Source: Fusobacteriota bacterium
GTDB lineage: Bacteria; Fusobacteriota; Fusobacteriia; Fusobacteriales; JBNJFI01
Direction of reading: 5' to 3'
Length of the DNA stretch: 30,135 bases
Assembly: GCA_051746725.1 (NCBI GenBank)
Contig: JBNJFI010000016.1
Location: 1-30,135 of the forward strand
Below are positions 1 through 30,135 of this stretch, piece by piece (the first letter of the stretch is position 1; every line of letters begins with the position of its first letter). The notes under the pieces were generated by a model, which was not told where the DNA came from, did not search any database, and saw only the letters and a list, made by a program, of their open reading frames with translations. The position numbers and the translations under genes were made by a program.

Positions 1-58
1 AATTATTAGGTCTCATAAATCAAATAAAATAAGTAGATTAGAACTTTGCAACTAGCTA
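1..58 (+). mobile_element. Right end of a MITE-like element (truncated by window start)
   Basis: 1-58 aligns without gaps to 19876-19933 with 49/58 identities; ends in TTTGCAACTAGCTA (45-58), the terminal repeat of the copies ending at 19933 and 29562. Confidence 0.8.
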
Positions 59-5670: not shown

Positions 5671-7149
5671 ATGAGACATAAAAATATAATTAAAGATAGA
5701 TATAAACTTATGGCAAAATATATAGGGATTTTAATAATGTCAGTAGGAGGATTTTTATTACTTCCATTGCCAATTTTATTTTTTTATCCAGAAGATGTGA
5801 TTTATATAAAATCTTTCACAATACCCTCTGTGTTATGTGTAATATTAGGATTTATAATATGGAAATTAAGTAAAGGGAAGGGAGAAGGATCTCTTTCTTT
5901 AAAAGAAGGTGGAATTATAGTATTGGTTTCTTGGCTTGTAGCTATAATATCATCTGCATTTCCATTTATTATAAATGAACAATTAAATTTTACACAAGCT
6001 GTATTTGAAAGTACTAGTGGATGGACTACAACAGGATTATCAGTAGTAGATGTAACTGAAACACCAAAAATATTTTTATTATGGAGAAGTATAATGCAGT
6101 TTTTTGGTGGAGCAGGTCTAGTAGTAGTTATGCTTTCTTCTGTGCTACATCCCTATGGATTTGAATTATATAATGCCGAAGGAAGAAATGATCAACTTTT
6201 ACCACATATAAAGAAATCAACTAAAGCAATAATGTATATATATAGTGGTTATACTTTAGCTGGAATATTATTATATGTTGTAGCCGGTATGGGAGTATTT
6301 GATGCAATTAATCACTCAATAGCAGCTCTCTCAACAGGGGGGTTTTCAACAAGACCAGAAAGTATTGGATACTGGGATAGCTTACCAATTGAAATGATTA
6401 CATGGATTCTTATGATACTAGGTACTATTAATTTTGCAACACATTTTACTTTATTAAAAGGTAAATTTAAGATATTTTTTAAAAATGGGGAAATTAAATT
6501 AATGTTATTTATAATAGCCTTTTTTGCTCCATTTATTGGATATTTTACTCTAGGGACAGTATATACATCTGTTTCAGATAAACTTAGAAGATCATTATTT
6601 GAGGTGATATCTGCTATTTCAACAACTGGTTTTTCTCTAGATGTATTTAGTAATTGGAATCAAATAGGTGTTTTTGCAATGATACTCATGATGCTCATTG
6701 GTGGTGGAACTGGTTCTACAGCCGGGGGTATTAAATTATATAGAATATATTTAATGATTAAATCATTTTGGTGGGAATTAAAAATGTATTTTTTACCCAA
6801 AAATGCTGTGGTTGAAAATTATATCTGGCGAGGAGAAGAAAAAACATATATAAAAATTGAATATATTAGAGAAACTGCAAACTATATATTTATTTATATG
6901 ACTACCTTTTTTGCCGGTGTTTTAGTATATCTAGCCCATGGATATGATCTTTTAGAATCGATGTTTGAATTCGCATCTTCTTTGGGAACAGTTGGATTAT
7001 CAATTGGATTGACTAGTCCTGATGCTCCTGCAATGATATTGTGGACTCAAACATTAGGAATGATATTAGGTAGATTAGAATTTTTAGTTATAATATTTGC
7101 TGTGATGAAGATATTCAAAGATATTAAATATATGGCATTAAACAAATAA
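5671..7149 (+). CDS. trkH: Trk/Ktr potassium uptake membrane subunit
   Basis: Polytopic membrane protein with four pore motifs (SGWTTTG, ALSTGG, AISTTG, SLGTVG), GGGTGSTAGGIK and GRLE. Confidence 0.95.
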   Translation: MRHKNIIKDRYKLMAKYIGILIMSVGGFLLLPLPILFFYPEDVIYIKSFTIPSVLCVILGFIIWKLSKGKGEGSLSLKEGGIIVLVSWLVAIISSAFPFIINEQLNFTQAVFESTSGWTTTGLSVVDVTETPKIFLLWRSIMQFFGGAGLVVVMLSSVLHPYGFELYNAEGRNDQLLPHIKKSTKAIMYIYSGYTLAGILLYVVAGMGVFDAINHSIAALSTGGFSTRPESIGYWDSLPIEMITWILMILGTINFATHFTLLKGKFKIFFKNGEIKLMLFIIAFFAPFIGYFTLGTVYTSVSDKLRRSLFEVISAISTTGFSLDVFSNWNQIGVFAMILMMLIGGGTGSTAGGIKLYRIYLMIKSFWWELKMYFLPKNAVVENYIWRGEEKTYIKIEYIRETANYIFIYMTTFFAGVLVYLAHGYDLLESMFEFASSLGTVGLSIGLTSPDAPAMILWTQTLGMILGRLEFLVIIFAVMKIFKDIKYMALNK

Positions 7150-19545: not shown

Positions 19546-19600
19546 TATAAACTAATGGGTATTAGGATATTTGATATATTTATTAAAGATATGAGGATAT

Positions 19601-19635
19601 ACAGAAAAAAGGAGATAAAATCTCCTTTTTTCTGT
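19601..19635. terminator. Intrinsic terminator after pgm
   Basis: 16-bp perfect stem ACAGAAAAAAGGAGAT / ATCTCCTTTTTTCTGT with 3-nt loop. Confidence 0.85.
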
Positions 19636-19755
19636 TTTAAATATGTCAAAAGCAAATTTTATATGTCGTATTATATTTTAGAAAGTTGCAAAACTAAAAA
19701 GATAAGATATCAAGTTTTCTACAGATTTATTAACAGAATTAGTTTTGGGTGATGC

Positions 19756-19778
19756 GGGCGAAGGCCCTTCGCCCTTAC
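19756..19778 (-). repeat. REP-like palindrome
   Basis: Minus strand reads GTAA-GGGCGAAG-GGC-CTTCGCCC (tetranucleotide + 8-bp GC-rich stem). Confidence 0.75.
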
Positions 19779-19816
19779 GTTTCAGGTTACGTAGGGATAA
19801 GAATATAAGTTTTTCT

Positions 19817-19839
19817 GTAAGGGCAAATGGCGTTTGCCC
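19817..19839 (+). repeat. REP-like palindrome
   Basis: GTAA-GGGCAAAT-GGC-GTTTGCCC; same architecture as the 19756 unit, opposite orientation. Confidence 0.75.
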
Positions 19840-19902
19840 GGGTGTGAGCAGTATATAAAAATGGAGGGAAGCCTTAATTATCAGGTCTAATAAATTAAAT
19901 AA

Positions 19903-19915
19903 AATCAATGGGTTA
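19903..19915 (+). promoter_or_regulatory. Candidate IHF-binding site next to the right TIR
   Basis: AATCAATGGGTTA matches WATCAANNNNTTR, preceded by an A/T tract. Confidence 0.4.
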
Positions 19916-19961
19916 CAATTTTGCAACTAGCTAGTATTATATTTGAAAGGGAGTGAGTAGG

Positions 19962-21791
19962 ATGAGTTTAACAAAAAAGTTTATGCTTATTATTTCAAGT
20001 ATTTTATTTGTGGGAATAATAGTTATAATGGGATTGGAAATTAAAAGTGAATTTAAAAATGAAGAAATTTTATTAAAGAGAAGAAGAACTGAACTTATGA
20101 ACGAAAAAAAGCAAAAACTTGAAGAATTAATAGACATGGCTTCATCTAGTATTAATAATGGGAAAACAGGAAATGGTATACCTAGTGAAAAGGAAATGAT
20201 TAAAATAATAAAAAGGTTAAGATATGGGAATGATGGTTATTTTTGGATAAACGATGATACCCAACCTTATCCTAAAATGATAATGCATCCAATATCGCCT
20301 CAATTAAATGGAAAAATATTAAATGATTCTTCATATAATGTTGCAAAAGGAGAAGTTAAAAATCTTTTTTCGGCAGCAGTAAAAGTAGCTAAAGATGATG
20401 GAGCTGGATATGTAGAATATATGTGGCCTAAACCAGGTGAAGAGGAAAATCAACCGAAATTGAGTTATGTAAAATATTTTAAAGACAAAGGTTGGATACT
20501 TGGAACAGGGTTTTATATAGATGATATTGATAAAGCTATAGCTATTCAAAGAACAGAAATCAGAAAAAGAGTGATAGATAAGATAACTTCTACAGTAATT
20601 ACTTTAGTGGGATTAATTATTTTAATTGGACTTAGTATTTATTTTTTGATAATTAATTTAATAAGAGATCCCTTGGAAAATCTAAAAAATAAATTTTTAG
20701 AAGTATCAAGGGGAAATTTAGGTGTCAGATTAGAAGTTAAAAATAACGATGAAATTGGAGAATTATCACAAAATTTTAATGATTTAATGATGAAATTAGG
20801 AAAAACAATGGAAAATATTCAAAATTTAGCTAATACAGTTAAATCTGAAAATGAGTTTTTATCTAAAAATATGGATAATCTTGTTAAAGGAAAAAAGAGT
20901 CAATATTATTCTCAAATAAAAGACAAACTAGATAATGGAGTACTTCAATTGGAAGACTATATTGAAACAGTTTTAGATAATGTACGAAATCAAACTGCAA
21001 GTACTGAAGAATCTTTAGCTGGACTTGAAGAGATAGCCACAACTAGTAAGAAAATTGAAGATTCTGCAACAAACACTTTAGCTACTTCAGAAAATGCAAT
21101 TGAAAATGCCAAAATAAGTTTTAATAATGTAGAAGAGATGACAGAAGGAATGGAAGATATAAATAAAAGTGTAAGTCGAACCAATAAAAAAATTACAGAG
21201 TTAAGTGATTTATCAGATAATATCGGAGAGATAATAGTAGCAATAAATGGAATAGCAGAACAAACTAATTTACTGGCATTAAATGCAGCAATAGAAGCAG
21301 CAAGAGCTGGAGAGGCTGGAAAAGGATTTGCAGTAGTTGCAGATGAAATAAGAAAATTAGCTGAAAAAACAAATACCGAAACAGAAAAAATAGAAAATAT
21401 AATCAAAAATATTCAAAATGAAGTAACAGAAGTTAAAGTAGCAAATAAAGAAGTAGAAGAAAATGTTGAAAATGGAATCAAATTAACTGAAACAGTTAAA
21501 GAGAACATAAAAAACATAAGAATTATAACAGAAGAGAATAACAAAAAAGTTAAGGAAATTTCTGTTTCAACTAATGAGCAATCTACAGCTTCAGATGAAA
21601 TAACTAATGCAGTTAATAGTATAACTGAAAATTCAGCACAAATAGAAGAATTAGGAATGGAAACCAATGAAGTTGCCTCTGATATAGTTAAAGTTATAGA
21701 AAATAATCTAGAGAGAATAAAAAAAGTATCGAGTATCGCTTCAGATTTAAATAAAGATGTTCAGTCGTTTAATCTTCATGATAAAAATTAA
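19962..21791 (+). CDS. Methyl-accepting chemotaxis protein (sCache_2 sensor)
   Basis: TM-sCache_2 ([35 protein letters not shown])-TM-HAMP-MCPsignal ([37 protein letters not shown]); ATG 19962 chosen from AAAGGGAG spacing (GTG 19953 is an alternative). Confidence 0.95.
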
Positions 21792-21813
21792 AATTTAATA
21801 AAATATCATAATT

Positions 21814-21849
21814 AAAAAATCCCTGGAATTATTCAAAGGGATTTTTTTT
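21814..21849 (+). terminator. Intrinsic terminator after first MCP
   Basis: AAAAAATCCCT...AGGGATTTTTT inverted repeat with T tract. Confidence 0.75.
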
Positions 21850-22000
21850 ATAAAAAAGAAAAAGAAAAAAAAGGAAATAAAAAAATATTTAGAATATATG
21901 TTATACAAGAATATAAAAAAATAGAGCTGTATATTTTAAATGAGTTTTTAATTAGATTTATATATATAGTAATATTATCAAAAGGAAAGGAGTGGTGTAA

Positions 22001-23866
22001 ATGCAATTAAACACAAAATTAATGACAGCAATTCTTACAGTTATAATATTAGGAGTAGCTGTGGTTTCTGGATTAAGTATTAGAGAACAAAGAGAATCTA
22101 GAAATGAGTTCTTAGAGTCATATGAAGAGACTATTATAAAAGAAAAAAAGGCAAAATTAAGAAATTTAGTTGAAACAAAATTTTCTATTTTTGAATATTA
22201 TCTAGAAAAAGAAAAAACAGGTGAGATGTCAAAGAATGAAGCTCAGAAAAAGGCAAAAGAGATGATACGAGAAAGTAGATATGGAGATGGAGGATATTAT
22301 TGGATTGATAATGGTGATTATCAATTAGAAGTCTTAGCATCTGATCCATCTCAAGAGGGAATGGACCGAGAAAACATTGAAGATGTAAAAGGTAAAAAGA
22401 TGGTTAAAGAATTAGTAGATGGAGCGGTGGAAAATGGAGAAACTTTTGTCACTTATTATTTTCCAAAGCTTGGAGAAGAGGAAGCTTCTCCTAAATTAGG
22501 ATATACTAAACATTTTGAAGAGTGGGACTGGATATTGGGAACAGGATTTTATATAGATGACGTTCAAGATGTTATTAAAAATCAAAGAAAAATATTAGAA
22601 GCTGAAGGTAGATCTGAAATGATATCACTATTAGTTGTAGTATCAATTCTAATAGTTTTGATTGGATTGACTATTTATTTCTTTTCAAAAAAGATTATTA
22701 AAGAACCCATTCAAAATTTGCAAAGAAGATTCGAGGAAGTTTCCAAAGGGGATTTAAGTGTTCGTTTAGATATTGAATCTGAAGATGAAATAGGACAGTT
22801 ATCTAGAGACTTTAATCGGCTTATGGACCGTTTAGGAAATACAATGAAAAATATACAGAGTTTATCAACTACAGTTAAAGAAGATAATGAACTACTTTCA
22901 AAGGTTATGGATAACTTGGTTAAAGGAGATAAAAGTCAGTATTTTTCTGAGATTGAAAATAATATTGAAGAAGGAATAAAACAATTAAAAGAATATATCG
23001 AAAGTGTATTAGATAATGTAAGGAATCAAACAGCTAGTACAGAAGAATCTTTAGCAGGTTTAGAAGAAATAGCTTCAACAAGTGGAGATATTAAAGAAAT
23101 AGCACAAGATACTTCTGAGACCTCCAAAGAAGCTATAAATATAGCCAAAGAAAGTTCAGAAAATATTGTAGATATGACTGAAGGAATGAACTCAATAAAT
23201 GAAAGTGTTAAAAAGACAAATAGCCAAATTGGAAAATTAAGTGAATTATCAGATAGCATAGGTGAAATAATAGTAGCAATAAATGGAATAGCAGAACAAA
23301 CAAATTTATTAGCATTGAATGCAGCAATAGAAGCGGCAAGAGCAGGAGAAGCTGGAAAAGGATTTGCAGTTGTGGCTGATGAAATACGAAAATTAGCAGA
23401 AAAGACTAATGGAGAAACAGAAAAAATTGAAAGTATAATTAAAAATATACAAAATGAAGTAGAACAAGTAAAATCAGCCAATAAAGATGTTGAAGTAAAT
23501 GTGAAAAGTGGAATTGAATTAACAAATAAAGTTAAAGAAGATGTTCAAAATATAAAAGATATAACTGAAAAAAATAATCAAAAGATAAAGGATATATCAG
23601 TATCAACAAATGAACAGGCAACAGCTTCTGATGAAATTACCCATGCTGTAAATGGAATAACAGAAAATTCTGCTCAAATAGAAGAGTTAGGAATGCAAAC
23701 AGATCAAGTTGCGGAAAGTATAGTTAATGTGATAGAAAGCAACTTGGAAATGATTGGTCAAATGTCAAAACTTGCAAGTGACTTAAATAAAGATGTTCAA
23801 TTTTTTAAACTTAAAAAAGATGCAAATAAAAATGGAGAATCATTAACAGACATAAGAGAGAGGTAA
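22001..23866 (+). CDS. Methyl-accepting chemotaxis protein (sCache_2 sensor), paralog of 19962-21791
   Basis: Same architecture; [31 protein letters not shown]; identical signalling tip. Confidence 0.95.
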
Positions 23867-23896
23867 TATAAAAAAAGATAATAAAAAATAAATAAT

Positions 23897-23918
23897 AGGA
23901 CAGGGCAACCTGTCCTTT
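23897..23918 (+). terminator. Intrinsic terminator-like hairpin after second MCP
   Basis: AGGACAGG-GCAA-CCTGTCCT (GNRA loop) followed by a short T run. Confidence 0.65.
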
Positions 23919-23946
23919 AAATTTAATTTATTTAAAAGGAGATTAG

Positions 23947-24462
23947 ATGTCAAAAAAGTTAATACAAGTGTATTTTGGAGATGGAAAAGGAAAAACAACA
24001 GCAGCAATAGGGCAAGCTATACGAGGTGCAGGCGCTGGGATGCATGTAGCTTTTGTTCAGTTTTTAAAAAATGGATCTAGCTCTGAAATATCTATTTTAA
24101 AGAGTATAAAAAATATTGATGTTTATATAATAAATTCTAATAAGAAATTTTTATGGGAATTAGAAAATCTCGATAAAATAAAAGATGAAACTCGTAAAGG
24201 ATTAAAAAATATAAAAGAGATAATAAATAAGGATAATATAGATATGCTTATTTTAGATGAAGTTTTACATTTAATTGAAAACGAAATTATTTCGGAACAA
24301 GAACTTTTGGATTTAGTATATAATAAAGATATAGAAATAGTAATAACAGGAAAAAAAATTGGAAAGAAGATTAAAAAATATGGAGATATAATAACTAATA
24401 TGAAAAAAATAAAACATGTTTATGATAAAGGTGTTAAAGCAAAAAAGGGGATAGAATTTTAA
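23947..24462 (+). CDS. cobO: ATP:cob(I)alamin adenosyltransferase (CobA/CobO/BtuR family)
   Basis: IQVYFGDGKGKTTAAIG P-loop, VQFLK, LILDE, VITG, KHVYDKGVKAKKGIEF. Confidence 0.9.
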   Translation: MSKKLIQVYFGDGKGKTTAAIGQAIRGAGAGMHVAFVQFLKNGSSSEISILKSIKNIDVYIINSNKKFLWELENLDKIKDETRKGLKNIKEIINKDNIDMLILDEVLHLIENEIISEQELLDLVYNKDIEIVITGKKIGKKIKKYGDIITNMKKIKHVYDKGVKAKKGIEF

Positions 24463-24504
24463 AATAATATATTAATATTTATCCAAATTAAAAGGAGGTA
24501 TGTC

Positions 24505-27147
24505 ATGTCAAAAAAGGTATTTATGTTTGAAGAAGGAAACAAAGAATTAAAAAGATTATTGGGAGGAAAAGGTGCTAATCTAGCAGAGATGACACGTATA
24601 GGACTAAAAGTTCCCTATGGATTTATAATTACTTCTGAAGTTTGCGTTGATTATATGCATAATGGAAGTCAAGTATTAGAAGATTTAGAGGATAATATAC
24701 TGACTTCATTGGAAAAAGTAGAGAAAAAAACAGGGAAAAGTTTTGCAGCAGAAGATAATACTTTATTAGTTTCTGTTAGATCCGGAGCTAAAATATCTAT
24801 GCCTGGAATGATGGATACAATTTTGGATTTAGGATTAAATGATGAAAATGTAGAAGGATTTTCTAAACAATTTGATGATAAAAGATTTGCCTATGACTGC
24901 TATAGAAGATTAATTCAGATGTTTGGAAATGTAGTTATGGGAATAGATCACAGTAGATTTGAAAAAGTATTGACGAAAATTAAGGATAAAAAGGGAATAG
25001 AATATGATAATGAACTATCAATAGATGATTTATGGGAAATTATCAAAGAATATAAAAAACTTATTAAAGTTGTAACAGGAAATGAATTTCCTCAGGATCC
25101 ATTTGAACAATTATTTATGGCAATAGAAGCGGTGTTTTCTTCGTGGAATAATAAAAGAGCTATTAATTATAGAAGATATAACGATATCCCAGATGAATTG
25201 GGAACTGCTGTAAATGTTCAAATGATGGTTTATGGTAATAAAAATGAAAGCTCAGGAACAGGAGTTGGATTCACACGATCACCTTCCACAGGTGAAAATG
25301 AATTATACGGGGAATATTTGAAAAATGCTCAAGGAGAAGATGTTGTAGCAGGTATAAGAACTCCTAAATTTATTACAGAAATGAAAAATGATATGCCGGG
25401 AATTTACTCTCAATTAGAAGAAATTTCAAAAAAGCTTGAAAATCATTATAAAGATGTTCAGGATATGGAATTTACCATAGAAGATGGAAAACTTTATATG
25501 TTACAAACTAGAACAGCTAAAAGAACAGCAGATGCGGCAATAAAAATTGCTGTGGATATGGTCAAAGAAGAAATAATAGATAGAAAAGAGGCTATAAATC
25601 GTATCGAACCAAAATTATTAAAACAGATAATGCATAGACGAATAAATCCTGATATTAAAAAGGAGCATGAAGTATTAACTACTGGTTTAAATGCTTCGCC
25701 TGGAGCAGCTACAGGATTAGTAATATTTGATGTGGAAAAGGCCGAAAAGTTAGGAAAAGAAGGCAAAAAAGTTATACTTGTAAGAGAGGAAACAACTCCA
25801 GATGATATAAATGGATTGGTTAATTCAGAAGGAATTGTTACTGTAAAAGGGGGAATGACTTCTCATGCAGCTGTAGTTGCACGTGGGATGGGAAAACCAT
25901 GTGTTGCTGGTTGCGGTGATATAGAATTAGATTTAGAGAATAAACAGTTTAAAATAGGAAATAAAACAATAAAAGAAAACGAAAAAATCACAATAGATGG
26001 CGGAACAGGAGAATTATTTTTTGGTGGATTAGAAAAGATAGATCCAAATTTAAGTGAGGAAGCCAAAGAATTATTGGAGTGGAGTGATGAAATTAGGACT
26101 TTGGATGTATACGCCAATGCAGATACTCCTGAAGATGCAAAATTATCTAGAGAAAATGGTGCCAAGGGAATTGGGTTATGTAGAACAGAGCATATGTTTT
26201 TCAAAAAAGATAGAGTCAAAGTAGTTCAAGATATGATAATGGCATCTGATACTAATGAAAGGATTAAAGAATTAGATAAATTACAAGAATATCAGATGAA
26301 GGATTTTCAAAAGATTTTTGAAGAGATGGATGGATTATCCATAACAATAAGACTTCTAGATCCTCCTTTAAATGAATTTTTACCTAAAATTGAAAAATTA
26401 AAAGAAGATATCGAATATAATAAAAGTCAACATGAAATAAAAGAAGCTAAGCGATTAGAAAAAATTGTTAAAAAAGTTGAATCCTTAGAGGAATCTAATC
26501 CAATGTTAGGTCATCGTGGAGTGAGACTTGGAATAGTGTATAGAGAAATTTATGAGATGCAAGTTAGAGCTATATTCAGAGCTTTGATTAACAAAAAAGA
26601 TGTTAATGTTGATCTAAAAATAATGGTTCCGTTGGTTTCTATTCCTAAAGAATTTATTGAAATCAAAAAAGCTATTAAAAGAATATATTTAGAAGAAGTT
26701 CCTCACTCAGGTAGAACTATTAATTATGAAATAGGAACAATGATAGAGTTACCTAGAGCTTGTGTATTGGCAGATAAAATAGCTAAAGATGCTCAGTTTT
26801 TCTCATTTGGAACTAATGATTTGACTCAGACTACCTTTGGTTTTAGTAGAGATGATGTTGAAGCTAAATTTTTACATTATTATTTTGAAAATGATATATT
26901 AAAAGATGATCCTTTTCAAACTATAGATCAAGAAGGTGTTGGAGAATTAATAAAGATGGCTATCAAAAAAGGGAGAAGTATTAGGGAGAATATGAGTATT
27001 GGAATATGTGGAGAACATGGAGGAGATCCTGAATCGATTAATTTTTTTAATAAAACAGATTTAGATTATGTTAGTTGCTCACCATATAGAATTCCGATAG
27101 CGAGATTAGCTGCTGCAAGGGCAGAACTTTCAAGTCAAAAAAGCTAA
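24505..27147 (+). CDS. ppdK: Pyruvate, phosphate dikinase
   Basis: LLGGKGANL, SVRSGA, MPGMMDT, GEDVVAG, GGMTSHAAVVARG, GLCRTEHMF, FSFGTNDL, GICGEHGGDP. Confidence 0.97.
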   Translation: MSKKVFMFEEGNKELKRLLGGKGANLAEMTRIGLKVPYGFIITSEVCVDYMHNGSQVLEDLEDNILTSLEKVEKKTGKSFAAEDNTLLVSVRSGAKISMPGMMDTILDLGLNDENVEGFSKQFDDKRFAYDCYRRLIQMFGNVVMGIDHSRFEKVLTKIKDKKGIEYDNELSIDDLWEIIKEYKKLIKVVTGNEFPQDPFEQLFMAIEAVFSSWNNKRAINYRRYNDIPDELGTAVNVQMMVYGNKNESSGTGVGFTRSPSTGENELYGEYLKNAQGEDVVAGIRTPKFITEMKNDMPGIYSQLEEISKKLENHYKDVQDMEFTIEDGKLYMLQTRTAKRTADAAIKIAVDMVKEEIIDRKEAINRIEPKLLKQIMHRRINPDIKKEHEVLTTGLNASPGAATGLVIFDVEKAEKLGKEGKKVILVREETTPDDINGLVNSEGIVTVKGGMTSHAAVVARGMGKPCVAGCGDIELDLENKQFKIGNKTIKENEKITIDGGTGELFFGGLEKIDPNLSEEAKELLEWSDEIRTLDVYANADTPEDAKLSRENGAKGIGLCRTEHMFFKKDRVKVVQDMIMASDTNERIKELDKLQEYQMKDFQKIFEEMDGLSITIRLLDPPLNEFLPKIEKLKEDIEYNKSQHEIKEAKRLEKIVKKVESLEESNPMLGHRGVRLGIVYREIYEMQVRAIFRALINKKDVNVDLKIMVPLVSIPKEFIEIKKAIKRIYLEEVPHSGRTINYEIGTMIELPRACVLADKIAKDAQFFSFGTNDLTQTTFGFSRDDVEAKFLHYYFENDILKDDPFQTIDQEGVGELIKMAIKKGRSIRENMSIGICGEHGGDPESINFFNKTDLDYVSCSPYRIPIARLAAARAELSSQKS

Positions 27148-27161
27148 TAAAAGGAGTAGGA

Positions 27162-27893
27162 ATGATAGAAAAAATTGAATTAACAGAGACAGTAATAAAT
27201 AAATCAGAATTTACTTTTGAATATATAGAAGATCAAACTAAAGTTAAGATAACTGATTATGATGGAAATTCTAAAAATTTAATAATTCCTTCAAAATTAA
27301 AAAATACAGATGTTTTTTCGATATCCCCAAATGCATTTAGGGATAAAGAGATTAAATCTTTGATAATTTCTGAAGGAATAATCGATATTACTGATACATT
27401 TAAAAATTGTGAATTAGAAAAGGTCTTGCTTCCTAATTCATTAAAGGCTATACCTCGAAGTGCTTTTGAACAAAATAAATTAAAAGAGATAATAATTCCA
27501 AAATCTATAACTGAAATTGGATGGTATGCATTTCAAGAAAACAGATTGGAATCTGTATTAATATCAAGTGATGTAAGAGAGATTGGATGGTATGCATTTC
27601 AAGATAATAATATTAAAGAAATAAATTTTTCCAATTCATTGGAGTACATAGGGAGACAAGCTTTTTTGAAAAACAAACTAGAAAAAATAATAATTCCCAA
27701 GTCGGTAGTTGAAATTGGAAAAAATGCTTTTTTGGACAATAATCTAAAGGAAGTTAAAATATTAAACCCAGATATCAAAATTGGAGAAGGAGCATTTTGG
27801 GCAAATGCTGATAATATAAAGATTTTAGGGATAAAAAATTCTACTGTAGAAGACTGGGCAAAAAAGAATGGTATGATATTTGAAGCTATATAA
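27162..27893 (+). CDS. BspA/TpLRR-type leucine-rich repeat protein
   Basis: About 22-aa repeats of the form LxxIxIPxSxxxIGxxAFxxN; no obvious signal peptide. Confidence 0.9.
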   Translation: MIEKIELTETVINKSEFTFEYIEDQTKVKITDYDGNSKNLIIPSKLKNTDVFSISPNAFRDKEIKSLIISEGIIDITDTFKNCELEKVLLPNSLKAIPRSAFEQNKLKEIIIPKSITEIGWYAFQENRLESVLISSDVREIGWYAFQDNNIKEINFSNSLEYIGRQAFLKNKLEKIIIPKSVVEIGKNAFLDNNLKEVKILNPDIKIGEGAFWANADNIKILGIKNSTVEDWAKKNGMIFEAI

Positions 27894-27913
27894 AAATAAA
27901 TAGACATAACACT

Positions 27914-27942
27914 TTGACAATCCAGAAGAAAAGTAGTATAAT
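27914..27942 (+). promoter_or_regulatory. Consensus sigma70 promoter for leuC-leuD
   Basis: TTGACA (27914-27919), 17 bp, TATAAT (27937-27942). Confidence 0.88.
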
Positions 27943-27977
27943 GTACCACAACGATAACACAATAGGAGGCGGATTTG

Positions 27978-29276
27978 ATGAGTATGACAATTGTAGAAAA
28001 AATATTAGCAAAACATGCTAATAAAGAGAAAGTAAAACCTGGAGAGAACATTTGGATAGAAGTAGATACGTTAATGACACATGATGTTACTGGTCCAGGA
28101 ACTATGTCTATTTTTAAAGAAAAATTTGGTGAAGATGCTAAGGTATGGGATAATGAAGGAATTGTCTTAGTTCCAGATCACTATATATTTACTAAAGACA
28201 AGCACGCAATGAGAAATTTAGAATATGTAAAACAATTTGCAAAACAGCAAGATTTAAAATATTTTTATGAACCATTTACAGATACGTATAAAGGTGTTTG
28301 TCATGTTGCATTAGCTCAAGAAGGACATACAAAGCCAGGAGAAGTATTATTTGGGACAGATTCTCATACATGTACAGCAGGTGCATTTGGTCAATTTGCA
28401 AGTGGAATTGGAAATACAGATGCTGCTTTTGTTATGGGGACAGGAAAATTATGGGTAAAAGTTCCTGAAACAATGAGATTTGTATTTGAAGGAGATATGC
28501 CAGAATATATAATGGGTAAAGATATTGTTTTACAAGTTATAGGAGATATTGGTTTTGATGGTGCGACTTATAAATGTATGCAATTTGATGGAAAGGGAAT
28601 TCATCAATTAAGCATGGAAGAAAGAATGACTATTTGTAATATGGCTATAGAAGCAGGTGGAAAATGTGGGATAATTGAACCTGATGATATAACTATTGAA
28701 TATGTAACAGAAAGAACAGATAAGCCATTTGAAATTATAAAATCAGATAAAGATGCAGAGTATTCTTATACTAAAGTATATAAATCTGAAGAATTGGAAC
28801 CAGTAGTTGCTAAACCATATTCTCCTGGAAATGCTGAGTTAGCTAAAAATTTAGGAGATGTAAAATTAGATAGAGCTTATATAGGGTCTTGTACTGGTGG
28901 AAAAACTGCAGATTTTGTTGCTGCGGCTAAGATTTTAAAAGATCAAAAAGTTAGTATAGATACATTTATAGTACCAGCGACAGTTAAAGTTAAAGAGGCT
29001 TTAAATAAGATAAAAATTGGAGGTCAAACTTTAAATGAAATATTTAAAGAAGCTGGATGTAAAATAGGAAAACCTTCTTGTGCAGCTTGTCTAGGTGGAC
29101 CTGAAGATACATTTGGAAGAACTCATGGAGAGGAAGTAGTTATATCTACAACAAATAGAAACTTCCCAGGAAGAATGGGTTCTATGGATGCACCAATTTA
29201 TTTAGCTTCACCTTATACTGCAGCTGCTTCTGCTATAACGGGTCATATAACTGATCCAAGAGAATATTTGAAGTAA
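27978..29276 (+). CDS. leuC: 3-isopropylmalate dehydratase / aconitase-family large subunit
   Basis: TIVEKIL, THD, PDH, GVCH, TDSHT, IGSCTGG, CAACLG, TTNRNFPGRMG, ASP; ATG 27978 after AGGAGG (TTG 27975 is an alternative). Confidence 0.88.
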   Translation: MSMTIVEKILAKHANKEKVKPGENIWIEVDTLMTHDVTGPGTMSIFKEKFGEDAKVWDNEGIVLVPDHYIFTKDKHAMRNLEYVKQFAKQQDLKYFYEPFTDTYKGVCHVALAQEGHTKPGEVLFGTDSHTCTAGAFGQFASGIGNTDAAFVMGTGKLWVKVPETMRFVFEGDMPEYIMGKDIVLQVIGDIGFDGATYKCMQFDGKGIHQLSMEERMTICNMAIEAGGKCGIIEPDDITIEYVTERTDKPFEIIKSDKDAEYSYTKVYKSEELEPVVAKPYSPGNAELAKNLGDVKLDRAYIGSCTGGKTADFVAAAKILKDQKVSIDTFIVPATVKVKEALNKIKIGGQTLNEIFKEAGCKIGKPSCAACLGGPEDTFGRTHGEEVVISTTNRNFPGRMGSMDAPIYLASPYTAAASAITGHITDPREYLK

Positions 29277-29308
29277 AAGTTGAAAGATGAAAGATGAAAG
29301 TTAAAAAA
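29274..29308 (+). repeat. Short heptamer tandem repeat
   Basis: TAAAAGT-TGAAAGA-TGAAAGA-TGAAAGT-TAAAAAA, starting at the leuC stop codon. Confidence 0.65.
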
Positions 29309-29333
29309 ATTATAGTTAGTTAGGAATACATTA

Positions 29334-29562
29334 TAGGTGGTTGCAAACCCTAAAAGTAAAAAACACTCAGTTTTACACAAAAAATATTAAAAATAAAAGA
29401 TAGAGATTTATTTTAAGATAAGAATATTTCAATTTTTAAGACCTTGATTGGGCAGATATGGAATCTGCCCCTACCGTGGAACTAATGGAAAGAGTTTAAA
29501 ATAATGAGTTGGAATATTTTATTGGAGGGTAATAAAAATAATTATAATTTTGCAATTAGCTA
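29334..29562 (+). mobile_element. 229-bp MITE-like element with REP-like cargo between leuC and leuD
   Basis: TIRs TAGGTGGTTGCAAAC / TTTTGCAATTAGCTA (11/15); flanking direct repeat AGGAATACATTA (29322-29333) / AGGAATATATTA (29563-29574), 11/12; last 21 bp match the 19933 end at 19/21. Confidence 0.82.
29450..29474 (-). repeat. GTAG-family REP-like palindrome
   Basis: Minus strand reads GTAG-GGGCAGAT-TCCAT-ATCTGCCC (perfect 8-bp stem). Confidence 0.8.
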
Positions 29563-29589
29563 AGGAATATATTATACAAGGAGGAATCG

Positions 29590-30135
29590 ATGGAAAAAAT
29601 AATAAAAGGAAAAGCCTATGTATTAGGTGATAATATAGATACAGATCAGATAATACCTGCAAAACATCTTGTTTATAAAATGGATGACGAAGAAGAGTCT
29701 AAATTATACGGTAAATATGCAATGTCAGGTTTACCAGCTAAAATAACTGAAAATAATGAATTTATAGAAGAAGGGAAATTTAAATCAATATATACATTTA
29801 TGGTTGCTGGAAAAAACTTTGGGTGTGGATCTAGTAGAGAACATGCTCCATATGCTTTGGAAAAAGCAGGGATAAAAGCTGTTATAGCAGAGGACTATGC
29901 AAGAATATTTTATAGAAACTCTGTAGATGGCGGGTTTATAACACCTTTGGAAACTCCTGTTAGATTATGTGATGAAATCAAAACTGGAGACGAATTAGAA
30001 GTTAATACTGAAGAGTTTACATTGAAAAATTTAACATCTGGGAAAGAATATAATTTAAAAGATTTAGGAGATGTTAAGGATATAATTGAAGCTGGTGGGC
30101 TTTTTGATTATGCCAAACAAGAAGGTATAATATAA
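29590..30135 (+). CDS. leuD: 3-isopropylmalate dehydratase / aconitase-family small subunit
   Basis: DNIDTDQIIPA, NFGCGSSREHAP, YARIFYRN, IIEAGGLF. Confidence 0.88.
   Translation: MEKIIKGKAYVLGDNIDTDQIIPAKHLVYKMDDEEESKLYGKYAMSGLPAKITENNEFIEEGKFKSIYTFMVAGKNFGCGSSREHAPYALEKAGIKAVIAEDYARIFYRNSVDGGFITPLETPVRLCDEIKTGDELEVNTEEFTLKNLTSGKEYNLKDLGDVKDIIEAGGLFDYAKQEGII

Follow-up and report, generated by a model that had tools for sequence, protein, structure and literature searches.

Oriented placement of short inverted-end elements with interchangeable GC-rich hairpin cores upstream of SD-like motifs in a Fusobacteriota genome

Introduction

The bacterial MITEs listed in the available parts of PMC3733652, namely Correia/NEMIS, RUP, BOX and ERIC, are short, non-coding, multi-copy and gene-adjacent, can fold back, and have inverted ends of 15-30 bp and duplicated target sites; a transposase supplied in trans moves them by recognising their ends (PMC3733652). 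The units described here resemble them in these traits, probably including mobilisation in trans, but differ from the elements as portrayed there by a duplication of ~12 bp, by a strict orientation in front of a Shine-Dalgarno (SD)-like motif, at a distance of 10-18 nt, and by a single set of arms combined with interchangeable GC-rich palindromic cores. For neither this strictly oriented placement nor the interchangeable cores did our literature search find a description.

Among insertion sequences, the IS1182 family as presented in the accessible sections of two sources has a DUF772 plus DDE_Tnp_1-type domain, a length of ~1.7 kb and inverted ends (PMC4923244, PMC5678879), all of which are shared by the candidate partner of our units, the metagenomic element L097. 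The L097 transposase nevertheless scores only 71.7 bits against NF033551 (IS1182), its best curated match, below the family cut-off of 270. Moreover, IS1272 of this family is reported in the same sections to insert into hairpin stems without target duplication (PMC4923244, PMC5678879), while our elements duplicate 8-13 bp beside SD-like motifs.

A second group for comparison consists of the REP/REPIN-RAYT systems, in which tagged GC-rich hairpins are likewise paired in inverted orientation across a spacer (PMC3733652, PMC3337134, PMC2817692, PMC3333891, as far as the available text of these sources goes), REPs being defined there by a GTAG tetranucleotide at one palindrome end (PMC3733652). 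In TIRtrons, as outlined in that same text, a Y1 (RAYT-like) gene lies between long inverted repeats (PMC3733652); the initial annotation had taken REP-like hairpins within DDE-style ends to be an undescribed arrangement, a claim that these published elements weaken. Unlike REP/REPIN-RAYT and TIRtrons as they are depicted in these sources, the present assembly has yielded no Y1 gene, the tag is mostly GTAA, the hairpins do not spread independently, the scars are inverted ends with duplications, and the cassette with matching ends encodes a DDE enzyme.

The target site invites a third comparison. Insertion at a fixed distance and in a fixed orientation from a motif outside the duplicated bases is known for Tn7 (attTn7) and for IS30 (its own inverted repeats), and the IS30 target resembles the element's own end. 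Unlike for Tn7, the motif in our case is a generic SD-like stretch of purines that most genes have in front of them, not one chromosomal site.

Results

The window, i.e., the whole stretch of 30,135 nucleotides that was analysed, contains two complete inverted-end units, elements 1 and 2, and a partial copy (Table 1). Element 1 is overlapped by a single ORF that reaches 80 aa, on the minus strand (19678-19926). Element 2 separates the large- and small-subunit genes of an aconitase-family dehydratase (subunit pair at 27975-30135), and the partial copy is followed by the SD and ATG of a purE-like gene (87-599; Pfam AIRC). In autonomous elements the counterpart of the right-arm motif TATATAAAAATGGAGGGAAGCC has the start of the transposase gene on one side and the right end on the other, so this motif may be read as a putative relic of a transposase promoter region.

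Table 1. Coordinates of the two complete elements, the partial copy and adjoining features in the window.
Feature	Position	Strand	Remarks
Partial copy: right arm with right inverted end	1..58	+	remainder cut by contig edge
Left target duplication, element 1, GTATTATATTT	19668..19678	.	11 bp
Element 1, 255-bp family-A MITE	19679..19933	+	between phosphoglucomutase-family gene and chemotaxis-receptor gene
Left inverted end, element 1, TAGAAAGTTGCAAAAC	19679..19694	+	
Hairpin H1 + TTAC	19756..19778	+	8-bp stem, GCC loop; GGGCGAAG-GCC-CTTCGCCC at 19756-19774, TTAC at 19775-19778; minus strand reads GTAA tag
GTAA tag + hairpin H2	19817..19839	+	8-bp stem, GGC loop; GTAA at 19817-19820, GGGCAAAT-GGC-GTTTGCCC at 19821-19839; inverted relative to H1
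Right-arm motif, element 1, TATATAAAAATGGAGGGAAGCC	19852..19873	+	
Right inverted end, element 1, ATTTTGCAACTAGCTA	19918..19933	+	
Right target duplication, element 1, GTATTATATTT	19934..19944	.	
SD-like GGGAG + ATG (19962)	19949..19964	+	methyl-accepting chemotaxis protein gene
Left target duplication, element 2, AGGAATACATTA	29322..29333	.	11/12 positions match right copy
Element 2, 229-bp MITE	29334..29562	+	ends as in element 1, core different
Hairpin E + CTAC	29450..29474	+	8-bp stem, 5-nt loop; GGGCAGAT-ATGGA-ATCTGCCC at 29450-29470, CTAC at 29471-29474; minus strand reads GTAG tag
Right target duplication, element 2, AGGAATATATTA	29563..29574	.	
SD AAGGAGG + ATG (29590)	29578..29592	+	Aconitase_C small-subunit gene

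Genome-wide, 41 family matches were found, including 22 complete units of 176-273 bp with paired ends. The inverted ends (TAGGNAGTTGCAAAAC) measure 15-16 bp, and terminal pairing was seen in 97.5% of cells (13 end pairs counted, 17 distinct copies). Direct repeats of 8-13 bp, differing in sequence between copies, flank all 21 evaluable units, and 13 of these duplications match perfectly over 10 nt or more; the ends thus behave as transposon ends, as the initial annotation had supposed. When the copy at C33:136-390 and one 12-nt repeat were removed, its flanks aligned unbroken to uninterrupted paralogous sites on C11, C47, C39, C36, C73 and C26. The copies at C13 and C20 occupy different sites and are 100% identical, and the window copy and the C33 copy share 97.6% identity, which indicates recent activity. 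Small multi-copy units with inverted ends and copy-specific duplications, whose ends match those of a transposase-encoding element (in another organism), have the features by which MITEs are identified.

Sequence reading and a hairpin scan identified three hairpins of the form GGGC...GCCC in the window, tagged GTAA or GTAG (H1, H2 and E), and the genome-wide scan detected no further hairpin of this kind there, which confirms their confinement to the two units. H1 and H2 differ at two stem positions with local pairing preserved in each stem, and they are inverted relative to each other in every complete family-A copy. On the + strand, H1 is in addition scored as a terminator-like structure. The interiors of elements 1 and 2 share the word GATAAGAATAT (at 19796 and 29417) and are otherwise poorly alignable, BLAST alignment being restricted to the ends. 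One set of arms encloses differing GC-rich hairpin cores, and this part of the initial annotation is supported. Scanning the whole genome returned 104 strand-wise hairpin records, all except six of the types seen in the window, the remaining six representing four terminator-like sites flanked by AAAA...TTTTTT. For a genome with a GC content of 28%, this abundance is far above chance. The tag was GTAA in 46 strand-wise records and GTAG in one, while a pattern scan for E-type hairpins gave a GTAG tag in three of six matches. Hairpins H1, H2 and E and a fourth repeat (GTAGGGG core) have a common GTAR tag and GGG[CT] stem base, with differing upper stems. When hairpins inside and outside the units were counted, 26 of 32 sites had an element end within 450 bp (15 inside complete units and 11 more near one end), contrary to the idea of an independently dispersed layer.

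L097, which comes from another organism, is 1732 bp long, has both family ends (the left one by construction, as the element was found using that end pattern) and carries a 474-aa ORF; its right flank reads AAGGAGG and then ATG. Pfam assigns the encoded transposase to DUF772 (PF05598, 3.2e-14) and DDE_Tnp_1 (PF01609, 1.7e-5; 25.1 bits, cut-off 23). A protein search, which is independent of the end pattern, recovered homologous insertion sequences in three genomes of the same order, with five identical copies in G012 and one each in G094 and G030. Their ends read TAGC..ATTGTAAA, their duplications are 10-13 bp long, and the transposase-proximal end faces the SD of a divergent gene. Of three copies examined on clostridial plasmids, two face an SD and start codon, and two are without a clear duplication. 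In the related MITEs L061, L065 and L105, the duplications measure 10-11 bp, an SD follows 4-5 nt after the duplication, and the palindromic cores are different ones without a tag. The units are well explained as deletion derivatives of a larger cassette bounded by inverted ends, an origin that the initial annotation had offered as one option, with a RAYT gene in the cassette; the larger cassette found is of the L097 type. Searches of the genome itself with P0001, PF01609 and PF00665 found no transposase of the partner family, and the autonomous partner of the MITEs is one we infer from other organisms; an autonomous copy would likely be lost where contigs shorter than 2.5 kb are discarded.

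In this genome an SD-like 4-mer starts 10-18 nt past all 31 true right ends, with a mode of 16 and 30 of the 31 at 13-18 nt, and a start codon follows at 28 of them. Looking outward from the left ends, the figure was 2/31, and at random genome positions (n=200,000) it was ~15%. The geometry is kept where no gene start lies downstream, namely at a terminator (C38) and inside another repeat (C33), and the autonomous copies share this SD-proximal, one-orientation pattern, the end-to-SD distance in G012 being wider (~16-22 nt).

Discussion

We consider it probable, with good confidence, that the units are non-coding MITEs of a DDE insertion sequence whose target choice is oriented upstream of SDs and whose hairpin cores are passively carried. 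Direct evidence comes from the ends and duplications, the number of copies, the 100% identical pair, the SD-proximal placement in one orientation and the existence of autonomous relatives. A DUF772 plus DDE_Tnp_1 transposase, distantly IS1182-like, would recognise the 15-16 bp ends TAGGNAGTTGCAAAAC and GTTTTGCAAYTAGCTA, work in trans and make cuts staggered by ~12 bp, giving rise to the flanking duplications. Target choice would be oriented, setting the right (transposase-proximal) end 10-18 nt upstream of a purine/G-rich SD-like motif, so that the element would land between promoter and ribosome-binding site and leave the coding sequence untouched. The transposase itself presumably does this targeting, possibly because SDs resemble its own left-end tip TAGGNAG. 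The GTAA/GTAG-tagged hairpins would then be an internal MITE core, copied passively instead of forming a layer of their own moved by an HUH enzyme. Subfamilies, both in this genome and in those of other organisms, hold different GC-rich palindromic cores at the same position, and any function of these cores would be that of an RNA structure within the 5' UTR. The shared GTAR tag and GGG[CT] base are also what would be expected of a protein-recognised hairpin, and passive carriage does not account for them.

The idea of a DDE/HUH hybrid is unsupported and gives way to a testable one, oriented insertion upstream of ribosome-binding sites. Such insertion provides this insertion-sequence lineage and its MITEs with a non-disruptive landing zone before most genes, and dozens of genes could have their 5' UTR altered at once. 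Should the transposase read the SD-like motif, this would be a simple natural system for oriented gene-upstream insertion and a new case of target choice evolving from own-end recognition.

A bolder version, possible although we would sooner bet against it, makes the SD a landing beacon that mimics the left-end tip, with the right end 16-17 nt away and the GTAR cores as selected 5'-UTR RNA modules. The transposase would place its right end at this fixed distance from any such pseudo-end, and head-to-tail copies one duplication-length spacer apart would arise likewise. The MITEs would be mobile 5'-UTR cassettes, their cores serving as stabiliser, insulator or processing site, and would stand before dozens of genes and also inside operons, as between the dehydratase subunit genes of the window.

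Selection could instead have produced the SD-proximal, one-orientation pattern from random insertion, by retaining the copies that maintain or drive downstream expression. We think this improbable. In a compact genome most other positions would be harmful, gene-adjacent MITEs are common according to the available part of PMC3733652, and a weak outward promoter-like match (19912-19940) spans the right end and duplication of element 1; such matches, however, numbered two against 2.2 and 2.4 expected from shuffled sequence. The narrow spacing speaks against selection, as do the same geometry beside a terminator and inside a repeat with several uninterrupted paralogues, and the recurrence of the pattern for autonomous copies of 1.7 kb in three further genomes.

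It had also been proposed that the hairpins are REP/REPIN substrates of an HUH Y1 nuclease (RAYT), riding in or inherited from an inverted-end cassette, so that two chemistries would be nested. H1 and H2 do form a REPIN-like inverted tagged pair around a short spacer, their two stem differences keep local pairing, and several hairpin types have a common GTAR tag and GGG[CT] stem base. Y1_Tnp genes are also frequent in the order, PF01797 being present in 73/120 relatives. The same profile gave no match in the 97%-complete assembly (G000), while control genomes matched, and no RAYT gene flanked by hairpins and inverted ends was recovered in this search; since the assembly has no contig below 2.5 kb, from which a short repeated gene such as RAYT could be missing, we leave a small residual probability for RAYT. 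Against it, the larger cassette with matching ends encodes a DDE transposase and not a RAYT, and the inverted ends and duplications are scars that HUH elements do not make. REPs are dispersed extragenically in high copy, independently of other mobile elements, whereas hairpin number and location here track the inverted-end element (26 of only 32 sites). The tags are mostly GTAA, with GTAG in one strand-wise record but in three of six E-type matches, and the related MITEs elsewhere have untagged palindromes. The exact H1 word occurs in one other genome, where no such hairpins lie in the 1.8-3.3 kb of sequence covered around each of its three Y1 genes. Taken together, we judge nested chemistries very unlikely.

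Scarcely any weight attaches to the reading of the units as structured cis-regulatory 5'-UTR leader RNAs spread by duplication or conversion, which would fit their constant sense orientation directly upstream of the SD and predicted folds more stable than shuffles (z -2.2 and -2.9), but is opposed by site-specific flanking duplications with inverted ends that indicate transposition, by transposase-bearing autonomous relatives, by the lack of Rfam matches even at E up to 1, and by absent covariation. Two-sided covariation within family A was seen at 0 of 29 pairs, and selection on family-A structure is therefore without support. As for the assembly itself, at least 10 copies lie at contig ends, and repeats of this family break draft assemblies.

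Hairpin-bearing units in the window and the genome

The GTAR-tagged GGGC hairpins described in the initial annotation are real: a hairpin scan located GGGC...GCCC hairpins at exactly three positions within the window, each lying in a stretch bounded by inverted ends (see table). The units to which these stretches belong are unusual in combining oriented insertion upstream of Shine-Dalgarno (SD) sequences with exchangeable hairpin cores.

Hairpins and the inverted-end-bounded elements of the window
Feature	Position	Description	Method
Hairpin H1	19756-19774	followed by TTAC (GTAA on the minus strand)	hairpin scan and sequence reading
Hairpin H2	19821-19839	preceded by GTAA	hairpin scan and sequence reading
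Hairpin E	29450-29470	followed by CTAC (GTAG on the minus strand)	hairpin scan and sequence reading
Element 1	19679-19933	bounded by inverted ends, hairpin-bearing	
Element 2	29334-29562	bounded by inverted ends, hairpin-bearing	

Contig C16, the window, belongs to a genome of 2.18 Mb (155 contigs, 28% GC), in which the element 1 repeat gave 41 matches by BLAST and 79 matches by profile search, reverse self-matches counted in. Pairing of end motifs genome-wide yielded 22 complete units of 176-273 bp, while no end pairs with good ends were found at a spacing of 0.7-3 kb. A direct repeat of 8-13 nt flanks all 21 evaluable units (the 22nd is at a contig edge), and in 13 of them it is perfect over at least 10 nt; since its sequence varies between copies, we interpret it as a target duplication. 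Inverted ends and flanking repeats together bear out the proposal of DDE-style ends. One copy (C33:136-390) sits within another repeat, and its flanks, after removal of the element and one 12-nt repeat, match uninterrupted paralogues on contigs C11, C47, C39, C36, C73, and C26 unbroken across the junction. The copies on C13 and C20, at different sites, are 100% identical, and the window copy shares 97.6% identity with the C33 copy, indicating that the family moved recently. The window itself opens inside the right arm of a truncated third copy (1-58), followed by the SD and ATG of a purE-like (AIRC) gene, and contig ends carry at least 10 other copies in the genome; thus, the repeat breaks the assembly. 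No head-to-tail element junctions were found in this assembly, and a run of N, standing for withheld or masked bases, lies within a family-B copy on C53 (~6360-6460).

Exchangeable cores

The interiors of elements 1 and 2 align by BLAST at their ends only, and across the units common arms (left ~65 nt, right ~45-90 nt) surround differing cores. Among the 22 units, 15 have the H1/H2 pair as their core and 6 an inverted CCCCCTGGCAGGGG pair, and the core of element 2 is the E hairpin; layered composites with nested H1/H2, CCCCCTGGCAGGGG, and E modules also occur. Hence, the idea of variable cargo holds insofar as shared arms enclose different GC-rich palindromic cores, but these cores are not independent of the units. 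A census tolerating three mismatches counted 57 hairpin positions at 32 sites, of which 15 are held by complete units and a further 11 lie no more than 450 bp from one end, several of them truncated by contig ends, a distribution that speaks against hairpins travelling on their own. The remaining 6 sites have no end inside 450 bp, and three of these show an arm-like motif. The genome-wide hairpin scan returned 104 strand-wise records, all of the types seen in the window except 6, which fall at 4 terminator-like sites.

Another repeat family combines a CTGTGTCGTAATACAG module with a long GTAGGGG...CCCCTAC palindrome and is present in at least 7 copies (C11:24510-24630, C47:4653-4738, C39:7163-7275, and on C36, C73, and C26); it can occupy the MITE arms and is also a target of MITE insertion.

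Transposase lineage of the units

No match to PF01797 (Y1_Tnp, the RAYT/IS200 fold) was found in the genome, though this family is present in 73 of 120 same-order relatives, and the HUH/RAYT layer suggested by the initial annotation is unsupported. Searches of the genome with PF01609, PF00665, and a TnpB zinc-ribbon model likewise gave 0 matches; because the shortest contig of the assembly is 2,509 bp, the removal of shorter contigs could have taken a collapsed insertion sequence with it. Among 40 same-order genomes, core matches reached 19-30 nt, which is chance level, and the GTDB family of the host consists of this genome alone.

When metagenomes were scanned for the left-end pattern, 55 loci were returned, mostly GC-richer chance matches. 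Related elements occur on several AT-rich metagenome contigs; the profile of the element detected L105 and L061 alone at E<1e-3, and the other related elements were recognised by reading. One match to the end pattern on viral contigs lacked arm similarity and was taken as chance. One locus, L097, comprises a full element of 1732 bp that has both ends and contains a 474-aa ORF matching DUF772 (3.2e-14) and DDE_Tnp_1 (1.7e-5) in Pfam. Its best curated family is IS1182, which it resembles distantly (71.7 bits, where the cut-off is 270). Homologues of L097 in public data are mostly on contigs of 1.4-2.5 kb and thus have the look of a collapsed repeat. A protein search, independent of the end pattern, recovered homologues in 7 of 120 same-order genomes, including G012 with five identical 1721-bp copies (ends TAGCTGATTGTAAA..., duplications of 10-13 bp) and G094 and G030 with a single copy each (duplications of 10-11 bp), and relatives on clostridial plasmids show 35-39% identity. 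We conclude that the elements are MITEs belonging to a lineage of insertion sequences that distantly resembles IS1182.

Role of the hairpins

H1 and H2 are the best-conserved part of family A in an alignment of 18 copies, and the two stem positions at which they differ keep local pairing in each stem. H1, H2, E, and the GTAGGGG-cored repeat have in common a GTAR tag and a stem base of GGG[CT]. Two unrelated MITEs of the same superfamily, L065 and L090, likewise have paired GC hairpins at the centre; L090, a ~148-bp metagenomic MITE with the same end motif, is by reading a near-perfect palindrome throughout, with a GC-rich local hairpin in either half. The kept pairing, the common tag and stem base, and the hairpins of L065 and L090 speak against the hairpins being mere filler.

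They may act as RNA structure in a 5' UTR, a possibility to which we give serious but less than even weight. RNAalifold favours a single long helix between H1 and H2 that contains no compensatory pairs, two-sided changes within family A were seen in 0 of 29 pairs, and the structure with local hairpins plus ends pairs in 97.7% of cells, no better than shuffles; covariation and pairing thus weigh neither for nor against RNA structure. Rfam showed no family in the window at gathering score and none on either element with E up to 1. Promoter-like matches were at shuffled expectation, and H1 scored terminator-like with a weak T-tract. Four public runs labelled metatranscriptomic were compared as contigs only: the depth of the element, far above that of its flanks, reflects summed copies and is no measure of expression, the stretch 19572-19673 is without cover in all four but carries no weight as evidence, and none of the contigs spans the upstream gene through the element. 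We regard it as rather unlikely that the hairpins are DNA structure used in or made by transposition, and as equally unlikely that they are a neutral relic. That they serve as RAYT substrate is very improbable indeed.

The exact 23-nt word of H1 plus TTAC occurs once in an unrelated MAG titled Candidatus Mcinerneyibacteriota (L040, 401-423), adjoining other GC-rich hairpins, one with a GTAG tag. This MAG was set aside; it has three Y1_Tnp genes, and the 1.8-3.3 kb covered around each contains no such GC hairpins.

Oriented insertion upstream of SD sequences

After C3:8218 and C14 ('- 17160') were dropped as non-elements from 33 candidates admitted by the filter, all 31 right ends in the genome had an SD-like 4-mer 10-18 nt beyond them, most commonly at 16 nt, followed in 28 by a start codon. 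As controls, the outward flanks of left ends showed such a 4-mer in 2 of 31 cases, and 200,000 random positions in 15%, or 6.5% when a start codon was also demanded. The spacing is kept next to a terminator on C38 and inside another repeat on C33, where no gene start follows. The same rule is obeyed by the right flank of L097, three metagenomic MITEs, 2 of 3 clostridial plasmid copies, and 5 of 6 further right flanks among loose ends in public runs, and in all five G012 copies as well as G094 and G030 the transposase-proximal end faces the SD of a divergent gene. We attribute this pattern to oriented target choice and not to selection alone; a literature search that covered PMC4923244, PMC3733652, PMC3049150, and PMC5678879, with ISfinder outside its scope, found no description of oriented SD-proximal insertion.

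The data show cuts staggered by ~12 bp, a single fixed orientation, and little variation in the distance to a G-run. We infer that the left-end tip TAGG[A/T]AG resembles the SD (TAAGGAGG). The transposase would then set the right end beside anything resembling its own left end, and it is conceivable, if somewhat doubtful, that left-end lookalikes, SDs included, are chosen in this way. On the Butyrivibrio plasmid pCY360 (L128, ~400-470), a partial and a full copy stand head to tail with a 14-nt spacer that is exactly one duplication, and one contig of public run X4 joins a right end to a left end over ~10 letters. These arrangements may represent tandem insertions or forms resembling circle junctions, and both junctions fit the pseudo-end idea, as the left-end tip stands in the place of the SD. 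At ~70 nt from the end lies a right-arm motif, AAAAATGGAGGG, that is found again in L097, G012, and L061. Its position in the autonomous elements, between transposase start and end, leads us to read it as a promoter-region relic.

In the window, element 2 separates the genes for the large and small subunits of an aconitase-family dehydratase, and element 1 precedes a chemotaxis-receptor gene. Two paralogous genes in tandem for methyl-accepting chemotaxis proteins (19953-21791 and 22001-23866) are 71% identical across a 300-nt stretch, and the MITE precedes the first only. Elsewhere, at C4:1-352, the left end of a second copy interrupts the right arm of an adjoining first, at approximately the position upstream of an internal GGAGGG motif predicted by the target rule, which suggests a nested insertion. 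Degenerate solo right-end-like sequences at C25:16861, C34:17354, and C53:4939, 9-15 nt upstream of an SD and ATG, may be old decayed insertions.
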